From NCBI GenBank assembly GCA_020137815.1, contig CM035356.1, forward strand, positions 4,898,001 through 4,962,000: DNA of 64,000 bases. The letters are read 5' to 3'. The translations under genes were made by a program, and so were the position numbers. The stretch comes from Hormiphora californensis. Its lineage: Eukaryota; Animalia; Ctenophora. Positions 1 to 64,000 of the stretch are shown here, one piece after another (within the stretch, counting starts at the first letter, position 1; each line of letters starts with the position of its first letter). The notes under the pieces are model-generated. The model ran no database searches. It worked only from the letters and a program-made list of their open reading frames with translations, and was not told the origin of the DNA.

Positions 1-377
1 TGGTTGAGCAGTTATGGGGGTCGGATATTTTATACCCTACACCTCCGATGTGGATCTGACTTTTCCTGTGGCTTCAACTATGTTAGTATACTATGTATTC
101 GAGTTTAGAGCAAATAAAGGGGATAAAATCGAGCGGAACACGTGATATTGAGTTTAGGATTGAAAAGCAGACGGGTGTTGTCTTGGTAACGTTGTCCGAT
201 TCGGTATGCTGACTCGATCTCACACACATTCCACAAAATTGGAGTAGAAGTCTCTTCCCTACTATTTTCTTCGTGGGCTTGAACCCACGACGATAATTAT
301 GGGTACAATGAACGACTATTTAAATCGATGGCGTCCTCGTTCAATACATCTAAACCACCTAACGATTCCTTTCTCAG

Positions 378-2513
378 GAGCCATGGATAATTCTAACAGG
401 AGGACTTCCCTCCAGTCTCACCACCCTCCACTACTACAAGTACGAGGGGAAGGGAGAGAAATGGCGGGGATTCAAGGAGATTTCAATACCTCTCCGGGAG
501 GGGTTTGACGCTGACACATGCTGGATGTACCCTGACTTCACCTGTGCAGACCGCCGAACATTCCTCTCAGTACTGAGCAACATTGTCTCCGTTAAGATCA
601 AAGGGGGTATCTTCAGGACATCATACGCCATGGCACTTGGTGGGTTTAGGAGAGAGGTGGCACGGCACTCTGGATCTGTTTCGAGGATGGTTGAGGTTTG
701 CAATTGTCCGGCACCCTACACTGGCACTTCCTGCCACCTATGTCGCGAGGGACTGTGGCATAAGAGCGGCTGGGGATGTAAACCGTGCGATTGTAATGGA
801 TACAGCCTGAAATGCGACAGTTTCACTGGCTACTGTTCCGATTGTGCGTATGATACAGCCGGTACCCACTGTTCCGAGTGTGCGAGGGGTTTCTACGGTG
901 TGCCCGATGGTGCCCCTAACCCCTGTAAACCGTGCCCGTGCAATGATCGAGCGGACGCGTGCACCACAACAGAAAGTGGCGGGTTCGGTGAATGTGTTGA
1001 CTGCAAAGATGGGTACACTGGCCGACAGTGTGAGACATGTGCCGATGGTTACTATGGTAACCCAGCCCTCGGTGTTCCATGCCGGGCGTGTGAGTGCAGT
1101 GGAAACATCGACCTCACCGCCCAGGGCAACTGTCATAACGTGACCGGAGAGTGCTTGAGGTGTTTGAACCACACAACGGGTTTCAAATGTGACGAGTGTA
1201 TCCGGGGTTACCATGGTGATGCTACCCGGGGAGCGTGTGTACAGTGTAACTGCAACATGGTTGGGTCCAGGGATAATATTTGTGATCCTCGTAACGGTCA
1301 GTGTAGGTGTAAAGATAATGTGGTGGGGAGATGGTGTGATAGGTGTGAGAAGGAGAACTGGGGATTGTCCAGTGGAGAGGGGTGTCAACCGTGTCAGTGT
1401 GATGTTAGTGGTACCCTTTTCAGGTACGTAACATGCACTATGCAGTTAGTTATAAGAAGGGGTTGGGGTGGCCACCACGTAACATGCAGTTAGTTGTAAT
1501 TTAGGAAGGGGGGGTCAGTGGTACCCTTTTCAGGTACGTAACATGCACAGTTAGTGGTACCCTTTTCAGGTACGTAACATGCAGTTAGTTGTAATTTAGG
1601 AAGGGGGGGGGGTCAGTGGTACCCTTTTCAGGTACGTAACATGTAGTTAGTTGTAATTTAGGAAGGGGGGGGGGGCGGCCACCACTGAATACATGCAGGT
1701 AGTTAGAGTGTAGACTAGTCTGTAGAGGGGAGAGGCGATAGAGAGATGTACAATATACATCGATGTATAGATGTGTGTAGAAATGTGCAGATGTGTAGAT
1801 AACTAATTATTTGGAGGGCTGTCATTACGTATTATATTCTGGGGTAGCTATCTAATAAAACGACATGTTTGCACCATATAGTTGTCTTCAATTCATTGTT
1901 CGTTATATTTCATATTCCTCCTAGGTCACGTGACTGCGACGTGAGAACGGGCCAGTGTGACTGTCGAGCAGATCGGCAATACCGGCGATGTGACGGTTGC
2001 GTGAATGGCTACTACCTCAGATCGGGTGTCTGTGTGGGCTGCCAGTGTCCCGTGTCCCGGAGTTCAAACTATAGCTGCAACGGGGTAACAGGATCTTGTT
2101 ACTGTCTCCCTGCATACACGGGGCCACGGTGTGAAGTAGCGGCGTGTCTCCGGGGCAGTTGGAGCGACTGGGACAGGTGCAGTAAGGGGTGTGGTAATGG
2201 CACCCAGACGAGGACTAGAAGAGTGTTCCTACCTGATGACGAGGTGTTAGCAATGGGTCTACCCGGGGAGGAGTGTGGGAGTATCGAAACAGAGCAGAGA
2301 TCTTGCAACACGGCCCAATGTGAACAGGTAACGGATGGGGGAGAGTGGTGTGGTGTGGTGGAGACTGTCCAACCTCTACACTGGGATGGGTGTAGGACAC
2401 GGAGGAGCACGAGGGTGTTGGAGTGCGGGGGGGGCAAGTGCTCATGGTGTATGAGTTGCATCCCAGCTAACCCAGAGGAACTGTACCGTGGGAAGGGGAT
2501 TGGAAGGTCTTGA
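378..2513 (+). CDS. Laminin-like ECM protein, internal/3' exons: laminin IV(B) domain remnant, tandem laminin-type EGF repeats, TSP1, then a Cys-rich, possibly cystine-knot-like segment
   Basis: Exon 378-1423 (ttctcag|GAG...TTCAG|gtacgt) reads EPWIILTGG...RRTFLSVLSNIVSVKIKG...VEVCNCPAPYTGTSCHLC and LE repeats such as CECSGNID...CLNHTTGFKCDEC. It joins in phase to the exon starting at 1925 (cctag|G) with WSDWDRCSKGCGNGTQTRTR (TSP1). The end of that exon and the 5' exons are not resolved; the ORF stops at 2513. Confidence 0.85.
1409..1650 (+). repeat. Four copies of an exon-end plus 5' splice site motif
   Basis: gtggtacccttttcag|gtacgtaacatg at about 1409, 1518, 1554 and 1617. Confidence 0.85.
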
Positions 2514-18855: not shown

Positions 18856-19282
18856 CATGTAGAGCAGCAACTTCCCATAAAACCGCATTTTACACCGGGT
18901 CCCTAATCATGATATCTGGCACTAGAGGTATTAGGGTTAGTATAAAGATCACTTTTATTGAATGATAGATCTAGCACTAGAAGTATTAGGGTTAGTATAA
19001 AGATCACTTTTATCATGATAGATCTGGCAGTAGAGGAGGTATCAGGGTTTAGTTAGGTTGCTCCACAATGACTATATTATAGAATTGCTAAATTCATTCA
19101 ATTTCTTGTCCTCTCTGTAATAATTACGAAATGCTGATGATTGACGTGGCCTCCGCCTTTTTAACACCATTTGTTACGTCTACCATTCGGCAATGTTTAG
19201 TCTGTGACGATCCTTTAAAACAACCCACCACAATTGCCAACACCAATCTCAAACACCACTTCTCTCATTCTCAACTCTACAC

Positions 19283-20431
19283 ATGATGATGATCGCTCTC
19301 GTCTTCGTTTCCTGTATCCTTGCCTCCGTGGCTGCTGACGACTGCGGCGAGGGCTTCTGGGAGTGCGACAAACACGACCAGTGCATTCCCGCGGACTACA
19401 AGTGTGACGGGTATGACGATTGTGATGATCTCTCTGATGAGGCCCACTGCGACAACTCTGATAACATCGAATCCTGTGAGTGGACGTGTGCGGATGGTGG
19501 GTGTATTTCGGAGAGCCAGGTGTGTGATGGGGAGTTTGATTGTGAGGACCAGTCGGATGAGGATTCCTGTCGTCACCACCACGACGAGCTGAAGAGTGCA
19601 GGCTGTGGGGACGGGGAGACTGAGTGTGCGGATGGAACATGCATCCTGTCCGGCTGGTGGTGTGATGGTATGGTGGACTGCGACAACGATGAGACCGAGT
19701 GTCCTCCCGATAACCTGGAGAATGTCTGCTCTGAGAAGGAATGGATGTGTGATAATGGGCAGTGTATTGCTAGCGTGTGGCACTGTGACGGTTCTCCCGA
19801 TTGTCAGGACGAGACAGATGAGGATAACTGTCCTCCTGACAACATCGAGGAAGAGGAGGAAGAGGAGGATGCTGAGGAACCTTCGGGAGACAACCTTGAG
19901 TCGGCCGATGACGATGCTGAGGAAGAGGAGGAAGAGGATGCTACGGACGATGCTGACGACATCAAGGCCGAGGATGCTACGGAAGAGGTAGAGGAGAAAG
20001 ATTCTGCTGCACCCATCAAGGCCGAGGAAGCTACGAAAGAGGTAGAGGAGAAAGATTCTGCTGCACCCATCAATGCTGAGGAAGCTACGGAAGAGGTAGA
20101 GGAGAAAGATTCTGCTGCACCCATCAATGCTGAGGAAGCTACGGAAGAGGTAGAGGAGAAAGATTCTGCTGCACCCATCAATGCTGAGGAACCTACGGAA
20201 GAGAAGAAAAAGGATGATGCTGAAGAGATCAAGGCTGAGGATGCTGAGGAAGAGGAGGAAGAGGATGCTACCGCTACAGTGGGAAACATCGAAGATGACG
20301 AGGAAGCCAGCATCTGTAATGATTACCAGTTTGCTTGCCAGAACGGCGAGGGATGTATCCCAATGAACTGGAGGTGTGATGAGATGGACGACTGCAGGGA
20401 CAAATCTGATGAGGCTGGATGCGATTACTAA
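19283..20431 (+). CDS. Intronless secreted acidic protein with five LDL-receptor class A repeats
   Basis: Signal peptide MMMIALVFVSCILASVAA, four LDLa repeats (CDGxxDCxDxSDE), an Asp/Glu-rich linker with 18-aa repeats, a fifth LDLa at the C-terminus, and no TM segment. Confidence 0.9.
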   Translation: MMMIALVFVSCILASVAADDCGEGFWECDKHDQCIPADYKCDGYDDCDDLSDEAHCDNSDNIESCEWTCADGGCISESQVCDGEFDCEDQSDEDSCRHHHDELKSAGCGDGETECADGTCILSGWWCDGMVDCDNDETECPPDNLENVCSEKEWMCDNGQCIASVWHCDGSPDCQDETDEDNCPPDNIEEEEEEEDAEEPSGDNLESADDDAEEEEEEDATDDADDIKAEDATEEVEEKDSAAPIKAEEATKEVEEKDSAAPINAEEATEEVEEKDSAAPINAEEATEEVEEKDSAAPINAEEPTEEKKKDDAEEIKAEDAEEEEEEDATATVGNIEDDEEASICNDYQFACQNGEGCIPMNWRCDEMDDCRDKSDEAGCDY

Positions 20432-21926: not shown

Positions 21927-25468
<3,542 letters not shown>

Positions 25469-26659: not shown

Positions 26660-26868
26660 ACTACATTAACCACGTGTTAATCATGTTAACCACGTGTTAA
26701 CACCACGTGTTAATCATGTTATCTACGTGTTAACATCAAGTGTTAATCATGTTAACCACGTGTTAACACCACATGTTAATCATGTTATCTACGTGTTAAC
26801 ATCAAGTGTTAATCATGTTAACCACGTGTTAACATCATGTGTTAATCATGTTATCCACGTGTTAATCA
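26660..26868. repeat. Short palindromic tandem repeat, rich in GTTAAC and CACGTG
   Basis: Units such as gttaaccacgtgttaatcat, directly fused to LDLa copy 2. Confidence 0.85.
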
Positions 26869-27762
26869 TCTTCGTTTCCTGTATCCTTGCCTCCGTGGCT
26901 GCTGATGACTGCGGCGAGGGCTTCTGGGAGTGCGACAAACACGACCAGTGCATTCCCGCGGACTACAAGTGTGACGGATATGACGATTGTGATGATCTCT
27001 CTGATGAGGCCCACTGCGACAACTCTGATAACATCGAATCCTGTGAGTGGGTGTGTGCCGATGGTGGGTGTATCTCTGAGAGCCAGGTGTGTGATGGGGA
27101 GTTTGATTGTGATGACCAGTCGGATGAGGATTCCTGTCGTCACCACCATGATGAGCTGAAGAGTGCAGGCTGTGGCGATGGGGAGACTGAGTGTGCGGAT
27201 GGAACATGCATCCTGTCCGGCTGGTGGTGTGATGGTATGGTGGACTGCGACAACGATGAGACCGAGTGTCCTCCCGATAACCTGGAGAATGTCTGCTCTG
27301 AGAAGGAATGGATGTGTGATAATGGGCAGTGTATTGCTAGCGTGTGGCACTGTGACGGTTCTCCCGATTGTCAGGACGAGACAGATGAGGATAACTGTCC
27401 TCCTGACAACATTGAGTCGGCCGATGACGATGCTGAGGAAGAGGAGGAAGAGGATGCTACGGATGCTGACGACATCAAGGCTGAGGAAGCTACGGATGCT
27501 GAGGAAGAGGAGGAAGCTGAAGACATCAAGGCTGAGGAAGCTACGGAAGAGGAGGAAGAGGAGGAATGCTGAAGACATCAAGGCTGAGGATGCTACCGCC
27601 ACCGCTACAGTGGGAAACATCGAAGATGACGAGGAAGCCAGCATCTGTAATGATTACCAGTTTGCTTGCCAGAACGGCGAGGGATGTATCCCTATGAACT
27701 GGAAGTGTGATGAGATGGACGACTGCAGGGACAAATCTGATGAGGCTGGATGCGATTACTAA
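26869..27762 (+). pseudogene. Second copy of the LDLa-repeat gene, 5'-truncated and frameshifted
   Basis: Highly similar to 19302-20431 but lacks the ATG and first residues of the signal peptide. It has a shorter acidic linker and an extra base near 27566 (GAGGAATGCTGA). Homology continues to 28319 (equivalent to 20994). Confidence 0.75.
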
Positions 27763-31804: not shown

Positions 31805-60107
<28,303 letters not shown>

Positions 60108-61433: not shown

Positions 61434-62903
61434 ATGCCTGCTAAGACAAGAAGTGGGGCGGAATTTTCACCTTTCGATGCTGAAACCCCCACCCTTGATG
61501 AGACAATCATTGTCCAAACCCTAGCCCATCCCAACCCTGCAAATCATCTATCAACACCTCCAAGAACCAAGAACTTTCCATTGCCAATTCAAACTCCACG
61601 CCATTTCACATCGGCTCAACAATGTCTATGCAATGGGACCAAATCAAGTGGGCGTATGATCAAGTGTGTCACATGCAAATGCTGCTACCATGACGAGTGC
61701 GTTAGCTTAAAATCCCTGAGCAAATTCCTTGAAATCTCTGAAGAGGGCCTTTTATGCGTTGATGACTGGGTTTGCCCGGAGTGTATCGTTACTGCCCGGC
61801 TTCTTCGAGCCGGTAGTCCCTTGTTTGACGCTATTGCCACTAAAGCAGCTAAACTGATGGCTGACCAATCAAACATCCATAACAACTCTCACCTTGACTC
61901 AACAGTTAATGCATGGCAACCAACAACCACTCCCGTTCAATCTGAAACCAGTATCTTGAACAATGAACATTTTCCACCGCTACCCTCATCCAACTGTAGC
62001 TCCTCACGTCAACTCACCGACACAACACCCACGGACAGAACTAACAATGCCACATCTCGTTCAGGTGTCCAAAATAAAACCCCTCCTAAGGTAACACCGA
62101 GAAAAGTACTTCCACCACAGCCTCGATTGACAATCCACTGTGATGATGTAAAGGAGACGCGGACTGCTATCGATAAAGCCTTGGAAACCATACCTATTTC
62201 TCAAGCAAGGAACTTTTCTTCCTCGGTAAGAATTTGGTTTCCCAATGAGGAATGTCAACGATTGGCCTCTGAAAACTTGAAGACTGCTGGAGTGCTAGAG
62301 AAAAATGTCAGAGTGTCTGCTGAGGTAATGTCGAAAGTAGAACTTAGGTTTGTTCCTGTTGACTTACTTCCAAAAGATGCCACAACTGAGGAATGTAGGA
62401 AATTCTGTCTTGAGAAGTTAACTGCAAAGAATGAAGTTCTGAGGACCTGCAAAGACCTCTCAATTGTCTATTTCAAACGCATGCAGGCAGACCCGGATCT
62501 AGCCACAGTAGTCTTGAAACTGCCAGTACAATTGAAGGACAAGCTAATGGCTGACGGAAGGGTCTTCTTCCAAATGTCCTCCGTCAGAGTGTCTCATCGC
62601 GTACACATCAAGAGATGTCCTCACTGCCAAGCCCTCGGCCACTACCCTGATAAATGCCCGAAGAAATCCCATCCAGCGACATGTATGTATTGTGCAGAGG
62701 AACATTCTACTGAAAGCTGTTCACTGAAAGAGGACACTGAGAAACACTGCTGTAAAAACTGTATCAACAATTCAGGACTCTCCTCAGATGTTAAACCTCA
62801 CCATGCTGGCTCATCTAAATGCCCAACGTACAAAGAGCACTATGATCGTATGTCAAAAAACTACCGTCAACGCAGCACCTTGCTCTCAAATACGGCAATC
62901 TAA
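61434..62903 (+). CDS. LINE ORF1 with PHD finger and CCHC zinc knuckles
   Basis: CLC...MIKCVTCKCCYHDEC...WVCPEC (PHD); RCPHCQALGHYPDKC, CMYCAEEHSTESC, CKNC...H...C. Confidence 0.9.
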   Translation: MPAKTRSGAEFSPFDAETPTLDETIIVQTLAHPNPANHLSTPPRTKNFPLPIQTPRHFTSAQQCLCNGTKSSGRMIKCVTCKCCYHDECVSLKSLSKFLEISEEGLLCVDDWVCPECIVTARLLRAGSPLFDAIATKAAKLMADQSNIHNNSHLDSTVNAWQPTTTPVQSETSILNNEHFPPLPSSNCSSSRQLTDTTPTDRTNNATSRSGVQNKTPPKVTPRKVLPPQPRLTIHCDDVKETRTAIDKALETIPISQARNFSSSVRIWFPNEECQRLASENLKTAGVLEKNVRVSAEVMSKVELRFVPVDLLPKDATTEECRKFCLEKLTAKNEVLRTCKDLSIVYFKRMQADPDLATVVLKLPVQLKDKLMADGRVFFQMSSVRVSHRVHIKRCPHCQALGHYPDKCPKKSHPATCMYCAEEHSTESCSLKEDTEKHCCKNCINNSGLSSDVKPHHAGSSKCPTYKEHYDRMSKNYRQRSTLLSNTAI

Positions 62904-64000
62904 ACTGCAGATCGATGAACAACAAGCTTGGTGAAATCTACGGGGCGTGCTGCGATCTTGACCTTGACGTACTCGGTTTGACAGAAACCTGGCTAGAAGA
63001 CGGTGATGTAGTCACTCCTGCGCTGATGAAAGAACTGGGATACAATCTCTATAGTTCGGCAAGAGGGGCAAGAGGAGGCGGCGTTGCTATCTTAGCGAGG
63101 AAAGCATTACGTGTAATACCTATCAAGACTAAGAACAAGCCAACAACTTTTGAATGTATCGAAGCTACGATCGAAGGCGGGCATCTTCAGAAAACTAGAT
63201 TGGTTGTGGTATACAGACCTCCATCCTCTTCCAAGAGGGAGTTCTTGGCAGAATTCGAAGAATACATATCGTCACTAAACGGCCTCAGTGGACACCCTGT
63301 TATTTTGGGCGATTTCAATATCCATACTGAGGATGACGATGACCATACTTCGAACTCCTTCCGTGATTTGCTTGTGGATGAGCGATGGACACAGCATGTT
63401 GAGGATCCAACTCACGAAAGTGGCGGTACATTGGACTTGGTAATAAGCAGAGATGATGAAGCTTCCCCTAGGATTAGTGCAGTCGAGGTTGCAAAGTCCT
63501 CTGTTTCTGACCATTATGCTGTCACATTCTACTTACACGTCGGAAAACCAATTCAGCGAGAAAGAAAAGCTGTTCTGTGCAGAAACATGAAAAAGCTCAC
63601 CGTTGAGGTCCTATCTATGAAAATAGATGAGTCACCGCTGATGTCAAGTCCACGTCCCTCTACACTGGAAGGGTGTCTCAACCTGTATAACGTCTCACTT
63701 CGAGAAATACGGGATGAGATAGCTCCACTACAGGAAAAGGTTATTAAAGACTCGGATCACCCACCTTGGTATGATAAACTATGTGAGGAAGCTAAAACCT
63801 CCCGCAGGACACGAGAAAGAGCTCTAAAGACCACCTTGAAAGACTCCACGAAGAAAGAAGAACACAAAGAAGCTAGAACAGCGCTGAATAAAGCTATGAA
63901 AGAAACATCCAGATTTCTCATGAAAACCAGGATAAATTTCTATCGTGGAAAGCTTGACTACGTGGCTGATGATCCAGCTGCTGTCAGTGGGTTAATCAAC
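62846..64000 (+). CDS. LINE ORF2 N-terminus (APE endonuclease), runs off the window
   Basis: YGNLNCRS, GLTETWL, RGGGVA, VYRPP, ILGDFNIH, GGTLDLV, SDHY read in one frame that opens at 62846. Confidence 0.9.

Follow-up and report, generated by a model that had tools for sequence, protein, structure and literature searches.

A conserved slippery heptamer at the ORF1-ORF2 junction of a LINE clade points to programmed −1 frameshifting

A review regards the way in which long interspersed nuclear elements (LINEs) translate their second open reading frame (ORF2) as an open question (PMC3894237). SART1 employs UAAUG coupling and mammalian L1 an unconventional reinitiation (PMC2881922; PMC3894237), and for TRE5-A and TRE3-A, elements of APE type without long terminal repeats (non-LTR elements) from Dictyostelium, a review figure legend states that a −1 frameshift is needed for ORF2 (PMC5911963). 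As far as the accessible text of PMC5009743 goes, its non-LTR content on frameshifting consists of HeT-A and TART, and A_AAA_AAC is given there as one of the most shift-prone heptamers for mammalian ribosomes. In LINEs of the CR1/L2 lineage, an ORF1 of type IC combines a PHD finger, two RRMs and three CCHC motifs, and has been reported almost only from mosquitoes (PMC4120745). Here we analyse two homologous LINEs, both on the + strand, within a 64,000-nucleotide stretch of the ctenophore Hormiphora californensis (assembly GCA_020137815.1, contig CM035356.1, positions 4,898,001 to 4,962,000 of the forward strand; hereafter the window), with emphasis on the ORF1-ORF2 junction of the downstream copy, element 2. 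The ORF2 of this element is very probably produced by programmed −1 ribosomal frameshifting at an A_AAA_AAC heptamer, which would yield an ORF1-ORF2 fusion.

The domain order of element 2 ORF1 is that of type IC, and its ORF2 likewise carries an APE endonuclease; in the description of type IC nearly all hosts are mosquitoes (PMC4120745), whereas the present host is a ctenophore, and a long spacer sets the third knuckle apart. The main text of that paper has no match for 'frameshift' or 'overlap', that of a 2026 CR1 survey (PMC13343379) none for 'frameshift' in a word search, and the accessible parts of PMC5006619 and PMC4700185 hold nothing further on LINE ORF2. We found no paper describing such a signal in CR1/L2-group LINEs, subscription papers and Repbase reports being outside the search.

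Organisation of the element 2 junction

Element 2 ORF1 (61434..62903, + strand, as are all element 1 and 2 features below) spans 489 residues from the ATG at 61434, or stop-to-stop from 61329. It encodes a PHD finger (61623..61784; Pfam PF00628, E 0.0015, under the curated cut-off, which is exceeded in the relatives P0004 and P0009), two predicted RRM-like domains in tandem (62121..62603) and, just downstream of these, three Cys/His zinc knuckles (62616..62822), with 12 Cys/His invariant over 113 aligned ORF1s and an atypically long spacer in the third knuckle. The RRM-like domains come from an AlphaFold model of the 86% identical relative P0003, whose best Foldseek matches are the tandem RRMs of Npl3 and IMP3 (probability 1.0, at low TM values of 0.16–0.33). 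The P0003 model further predicts a last ORF1 helix at residues 327–337, directly followed by Lys 338 of a Lys-Asn pair and by a tail of low confidence. The position of this pair, just past the last helix, would make a natural fusion point.

In element 2, the Lys-Asn is encoded by the heptamer. The ATG at 62850–52 is followed by TCA AAA AAC, so that A_AAA_AAC (62855..62861), of the X_XXY_YYZ type, lies in phase with ORF1 and reads Ser-Lys-Asn, 13 codons ahead of the ORF1 stop TAA at 62901–03. The −1 frame is open over 385 codons, from 62846 to the window end (62846..64000), and opens with an APE endonuclease (PF03372, E 3e-18; alignment to exonuclease III from the PDB); it leaves the window before the reverse transcriptase, the 3′ end of the element likewise lying beyond it, and no protease domain was detected in ORF2 with Pfam. 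Both frames overlap at 62861..62903, where one stretch of DNA encodes the 13-residue ORF1 tail and, in −1, a linker of 8 residues plus the first endonuclease strand. The peptide LKYGNLNCRS, coded from 62885, aligns with MKITTWNVNS of exonuclease III and corresponds to its first strand plus the conserved Asn of the first endonuclease motif, whose codon (62903..62905) lies upstream of the first AUG. A TGA at 62843..62845, which is not conserved in the clade, shuts the −1 frame upstream and thereby confines ORF2 entry to the stretch past 62845; an intact endonuclease must therefore be entered between 62846 and about 62885, an interval devoid of ATG in this frame. The first in-frame ATG of ORF2 (62915..62917) sits at an internal position, four codons past the conserved Asn and 12 nucleotides past the ORF1 stop, where element 1 and the related locus L045 have Leu. 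Translation from it would omit both the first strand and the conserved Asn, as judged from the exonuclease III alignment. This residue is presumably the equivalent of an Asn near the start of the Zorro3 endonuclease. The N17A substitution near the start of that enzyme lowers transposition to <5% (PMC1965478).

The junction had been pointed out before in a sequence-only reading of the window, and re-reading the DNA returned the same positions for the heptamer (62855–61), the TGA (62843–45), the ORF1 stop (62903) and the ATG (62915). It likewise bears out the description given there of a −1 frame that is open past the TGA, overlaps ORF1 to 62903, encodes LKYGNLNCRS and meets its first ATG just after the conserved Asn. 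In the mechanism that we propose, most ribosomes would continue past the heptamer and terminate at 62901–03 to release the ORF1 protein. In a minority of them, tRNA-Lys and tRNA-Asn would slip one base back on A_AAA_AAC and translation would resume at 62861 in the −1 frame, through the 8-residue linker that would join the last ORF1 helix to the endonuclease and the reverse transcriptase. A high ORF1:ORF2 ratio would thus be set by rare slippage, as in gag-pol.

Conservation of the heptamer in a LINE clade

The mere presence of A_AAA_AAC means little, because the heptamer is common in the window (22 copies, both strands). A motif scan blind to the junction, run over three collections, returned at least 166 loci, 4 of which (L045, L082, L086 and L103) belong to the clade, with scores >200 bits on the clade profile as against 63 for the next best. 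All four are metagenome contigs, three with only 300 bases of flank, and they are 25–44% identical to each other and to the window elements. At their junctions TCA or ACA precedes AAA AAC in 4/4, giving A_AAA_AAC. Adding element 2 and the upstream copy in the window, element 1 (54131..54137, Leu-Lys-Asn), the junction x-Lys-Asn triplet forms the heptamer in 6/6 cases versus 0/15 for the other x-Lys-Asn triplets of the same ORFs (Fisher 1.8e-5), a contrast that places its conservation beyond chance; the four new loci alone give 2.6e-4, with a codon-usage expectation of 1.8e-5. In L045, the −1 frame stays open from the heptamer across the first endonuclease motif up to the contig end and contains no ATG, and in L086, L103 and L082 nothing closes it before the locus ends (10 and 16 codons). 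Three lineages read at the DNA level (elements 1, 2 and L045) have no usable AUG before the first endonuclease motif.

Two-frame matching of 199 ORF1 tails against 68 ORF2 starts resolved a further lineage, in which the ORF1 tail of P0039 and the ORF2 start of P0337 are compatible with a single DNA in the −1 frame at 41/41 residues, forcing TCA AAA AAC. The best 21 pairings (9 matches or more) were all −1. A loose threshold yielded 195 pairings in +1 versus 37 in −1; the former were treated as noise, none exceeding 8 matches and most of those listed mapping far from the ORF1 stop. The seven codon-resolved lineages occur on both sides of the weakly supported midpoint split of the ORF1 tree, and the final C of the heptamer is fixed in 7/7. 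The synonymous-site check across families that the sequence-only reading had called for thus turned out in its favour, both in the new loci and in the P0039/P0337 lineage. The contrary outcomes that it had named, AAG or AAT at the junction and ORF2 in other frames, were nowhere found in DNA, ORF2 lying in −1 wherever determinable. By comparison, 0/8 unrelated knuckle-type LINE loci pair a −1 ORF2 with an in-phase heptamer, according to crude ORF calls. Over the element 2 junction, 101 contigs from three sequencing runs list no heptamer substitution and no insertion, which is weak support since differences at contig ends are not listed; one contig (run X3, depth 35 of 827) is one A short in the A-run. 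When metagenome contigs were scanned at the protein level with the alignment of the element 2 family as guide, no relative was recovered.

Conservation was also evident in proteins. Searching 1.84 billion cluster representatives with a profile, we obtained 238 matches at E 1e-30 or better, the best 150 of which (147 new) were analysed; after removal of 6 truncated or mis-anchored sequences, 141 ORF1 representatives of clusters <50% identical were retained. Lys-Asn occurs 11–29 residues past the last knuckle Cys in 123/141 of them (mean 27 and maximum 43 in 2000 shuffles), followed by an ORF1 tail of 0–31 residues. The search did not select for this pair, because the spacing between knuckle and pair varies and the tail contributes about 5 bits to the score of all rows alike, with or without Lys-Asn; ranked by a profile that omits the tail, 93 of the best 100 carry the pair. 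Among close relatives, Lys-Asn is kept in 10/12 for element 2 and in 7/7 full-length sequences (of 9 matches) for element 1. Furthermore, A_AAA_AAC needs a preceding codon ending in A, which is impossible for Asp, Asn, His, Tyr, Phe, Cys, Met and Trp. Such residues precede the junction pair in 0/123 cases, versus 111/476 for Lys-Asn found elsewhere in these proteins (P 7e-13), a difference that persists with Ser left out (0/47 versus 111/408, P 1e-6). The residue at this position is of 11 chemically unlike kinds, all with an A-ending codon, Ser accounting for 76/123. As for the 18 exceptions lacking Lys-Asn, 12 fit another canonical heptamer at the protein level (6.3 in shuffles, P 0.0014); for the families with Ser-Leu-Asn, Gln-Gly-Asn, Asp-Phe-Leu and Thr-Asn-Leu/Phe, the predicted heptamers are U_UUA_AAC, G_GGA_AAC, U_UUU_UUA and A_AAU_UUA/U, respectively. 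The putative slippery signal thus characterises a whole LINE clade. Together, the conservation of the heptamer at synonymous sites across the clade and a −1 ORF2 wherever its frame was determinable support the functional frameshifting put forward in the sequence-only reading, which we regard as highly probable.

That reading had taken the presence of the same architecture in both window elements as an independent recurrence and as its main support, a view that did not hold up. Between elements 1 and 2 there is no useful similarity in DNA; their ORF2s are 33% identical and their ORF1 profiles match at 98.7% probability, by which they are homologous, distant members of one clade. As Lys-Asn is the rule in this clade, the shared heptamer is best read as conserved by descent. 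The two copies do have in common all that had been listed for them, namely M-x-K-N, the heptamer, its phase and a nearby upstream −1 stop; the heptamer and its phase extend to the family, but the Met and the stop do not. The Met is kept in 1/12 relatives of element 2 and in 1/7 relatives of element 1 reaching the C-terminus. A −1 stop within 3 codons upstream is found in 5/7 lineages, and was rejected as a selected feature since it occurs in 3/5 new lineages (P 0.14 at a background of 0.28). Both are incidental to the site.

Element 1 (53320–57505) is a 5′-truncated copy with its remaining ORFs intact, inserted in a 54-bp tandem array (50762–53301 and 57506–57950). Its ORF1 (53328..54188) is followed in the −1 frame by an ORF2 (54125..57160) with an APE endonuclease and a reverse transcriptase (PF00078, E 1.7e-31), of which 89 codons precede the first ATG (54392), located past both the conserved Asn and a conserved Glu motif. 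The 3′ end forms a hairpin at about 57421–57467 (−16.5 kcal/mol), followed by a TTG tail. Its C-terminal motif is presumably L2-like. Over 18% of its length, element 1 ORF1 shares 98% identity with a gene model from Pleurobrachia bachei, and the closest atlas clusters of one relative are mostly from Ctenophora, on few records.

Contrary observations and alternative routes to ORF2

Several observations weigh against frameshifting at the heptamer. One is that local folds 3′ of it are unremarkable: all six heptamers examined have weak ones, three of the new loci offering 30–48 nucleotides downstream, and no dedicated pseudoknot search was made. Pairing of the junction to the element 1 3′ end is borderline, with 19/500 shuffles and 6/60 other windows as good (best of 4 windows). 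Further, 6/18 exceptions match no canonical heptamer, and P0013 and P0014, 56% identical to element 2 and 2/12 of its close relatives, end in Ser-Lys-Ser. In the P0039/P0337 lineage, a genuine ATG in frame precedes the endonuclease motif, five codons past the heptamer and arising from an ORF1 Gln-Trp pair, and several ORF2 gene calls have like starts upstream of that motif, so some lineages could begin ORF2 on AUG. A role of Lys-Asn in the protein, suggested by its predicted location, may add to its conservation. Lastly, codon-level resolution comes from only 7 lineages, and ORF2 is directly visible in 4 of them (elements 1, 2, L045 and P0039/P0337).

As to candidate stimulators, the best fold score in element 2 was z −2.16 among 12 windows tried, for a possible long-loop stem at 62865..62969, and z −1.16 for 130 nucleotides. 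The stem is seemingly not kept in a diverged subfamily (loose contig ends compared by eye, one subfamily assumed) and is not supported as a stimulator. Nor is pairing to the element 1 3′ end, which is borderline in 1/4 windows and must open the terminal hairpin of −16.5 kcal/mol. Of three element 1 windows, one has the 3′ end as its fourth-best partner, and the other two do not have it among their best 8. GTA occupies positions +3 to +5 downstream of the heptamer in element 1, L045, L086, L103 and the P0039 lineage, and is absent in element 2 (62864–62866) and L082.

Some lineages merit mention in their own right. P0013 and P0014, a lineage sister to element 2, have a very short tail after Ser-Lys-Ser and may use another site or mechanism. 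P0042 has P0083 as its sister row in the tree, and its long tail resembles by eye the tail of P0083 read in a different frame starting at the Lys, as would result if the A-run had lost one base. L103 has GTG at the place of the upstream ATG of P0039/P0337. In P0294, P0298, P0301, P0307, P0310 and P0311, ORF2 was called from one common position, 11 residues ahead of the endonuclease Asn; this start is either a genuine AUG or a codon overlapping the ORF1 stop. Use of AUG is not readable from gene calls, as these also render TTG as Met (P0214 versus element 1); automatic and hence weak as evidence, 47/120 ORF2 calls include the first motif, some with similar starts, and 73/120 begin past it.

We next weighed other routes to ORF2. 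A separate protein could arise by termination-reinitiation or non-AUG initiation, as in SART1 and mammalian L1, the heptamer being a by-product. This is the established route in the LINEs studied (PMC2881922; PMC3894237), and L1 tolerates a missing ORF2 AUG (PMC1965478). The short distance between the ORF1 stop and the ATG at 62915 would suit it, as would near-cognate in-frame ACG codons at 62870 in element 2 and 54155 in element 1 and the upstream ATG of the P0039/P0337 lineage. However, reinitiation leaves both the fixed synonymous bases (6/6 versus 0/15) and the A-ending rule unexplained, and neither a UAAUG nor an AUGA stop-start overlap is present at the ORF1 stop of elements 1, 2, L045 and L082. 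Moreover, the first endonuclease strand of element 2 is coded before the ORF1 stop, the first ATG of element 1 comes 89 codons into ORF2, and, for what automatic calls are worth, most ORF2 starts were called past the first motif. We therefore deem this route unlikely.

Slippage of RNA polymerase on the A6 contained in the heptamer would add one base, such that a minority of transcripts encoded the fusion with no need for ribosomal frameshifting. The one-base loss in the contig of run X3 does suggest that the run is indel-prone. Given cis preference, in which the RNA copied by a LINE is the one that encoded its ORF2, slipped transcripts should leave fused DNA copies; yet no insertion is listed at the A-run in the 101 contigs, and 0/120 ORF2 relatives (556–1770 residues, the only lengths searched) carry a knuckle. 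The final C fixed in all 7 resolved lineages, and the several exceptions fitting heptamers other than A-runs at the protein level, likewise speak against polymerase slippage, whose chance we rate slimmer still. Finally, Lys-Asn could be a protein motif ending the last ORF1 helix, its slippery codons owing to chance or A-rich codon bias. The location of the pair directly after that helix and the frequent Ser before it are compatible with such a motif. Nonetheless, although these ORFs use AAA for 51% of their Lys and AAC for 53% of their Asn, none of the 15 other triplets is slippery. A protein motif would hardly account for a distance from the knuckle that ranges over 11–29 residues or for so diverse a preceding residue, always capable of an A-ending codon, and it leaves translation of ORF2 unexplained. 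This last explanation is already largely refuted and scarcely credible. Programmed −1 frameshifting at the heptamer is thus the reading that we favour.

Window context and comparison with described systems

The window holds other features besides these two elements. A third, more distant LINE (42421–45314, − strand) encodes an endonuclease and a reverse transcriptase with a frame change near the 3′ end, and no ORF1 was found upstream of it. Two near-identical long ORFs (19208–20431 and 26670–27762, +) contain LDL-receptor class A and acidic repeats, an apparent local gene duplication. Exons encoding laminin EGF and thrombospondin type 1 domains map to 363–2513 (+), and a reading frame at 48102–48503 (+) resembles by eye what we take to be a MAGUK-type SH3 exon. 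A 162–163 bp repeat at 23346–24274, 37756 and 38085, in tandem pairs and both orientations, is possibly a small non-autonomous element.

Beyond element 2, we lean towards a broader view, based on the sequences compared, in which a large and ancient LINE clade of marine invertebrates, comprising well over 100 lineages, produces the endonuclease-reverse transcriptase solely in Gag-Pol fashion, fused to ORF1 by a −1 shift at A_AAA_AAC. As local RNA structure would be lacking, another stimulator would be at work, such as long-range pairing, the nascent knuckles or the ORF1 protein, and frameshifting would perhaps be the usual route to ORF2 in CR1/L2-group LINEs. If true, this would explain the missing ORF2 start codons and the 'truncated' calls of gene finders, and would point to a frameshift stimulator other than a local hairpin. 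An ORF2 tethered to the RNA-binding ORF1 could also confer cis preference and a fixed ratio of both products. The seven-base heptamer offers a target for a direct test.

The closest parallel is with gag-pol of retroviruses and LTR retrotransposons, where an in-phase heptamer near the end of a knuckle-bearing first ORF likewise precedes a −1 polymerase ORF lacking a usable start of its own (PMC5009743). Unlike these, the present elements are non-LTR, have no detected protease domain, so that the fusion may stay uncut, and revealed no significant conserved 3′ stem-loop or pseudoknot in the local folds examined. TRE5-A and TRE3-A share with them the idea of a −1 frameshift for a LINE ORF2, but are amoebozoan and tRNA-gene-targeted, and the accessible text on them describes no slippery site, experiment or clade-wide heptamer (PMC5911963). 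If our reading is true, a large LINE clade uses the retroviral solution, whereas the tested cases, SART1 and L1, reinitiate to a separate protein. The bicistronic LINE RNA is alike in all of them, and in SART1 and L1 the output of ORF2 is low and dependent on ORF1 translation (PMC2881922; PMC3894237). These two, however, make a separate ORF2, whereas the present ORFs lack a stop-start overlap and instead run over one another through the first strand of the endonuclease.

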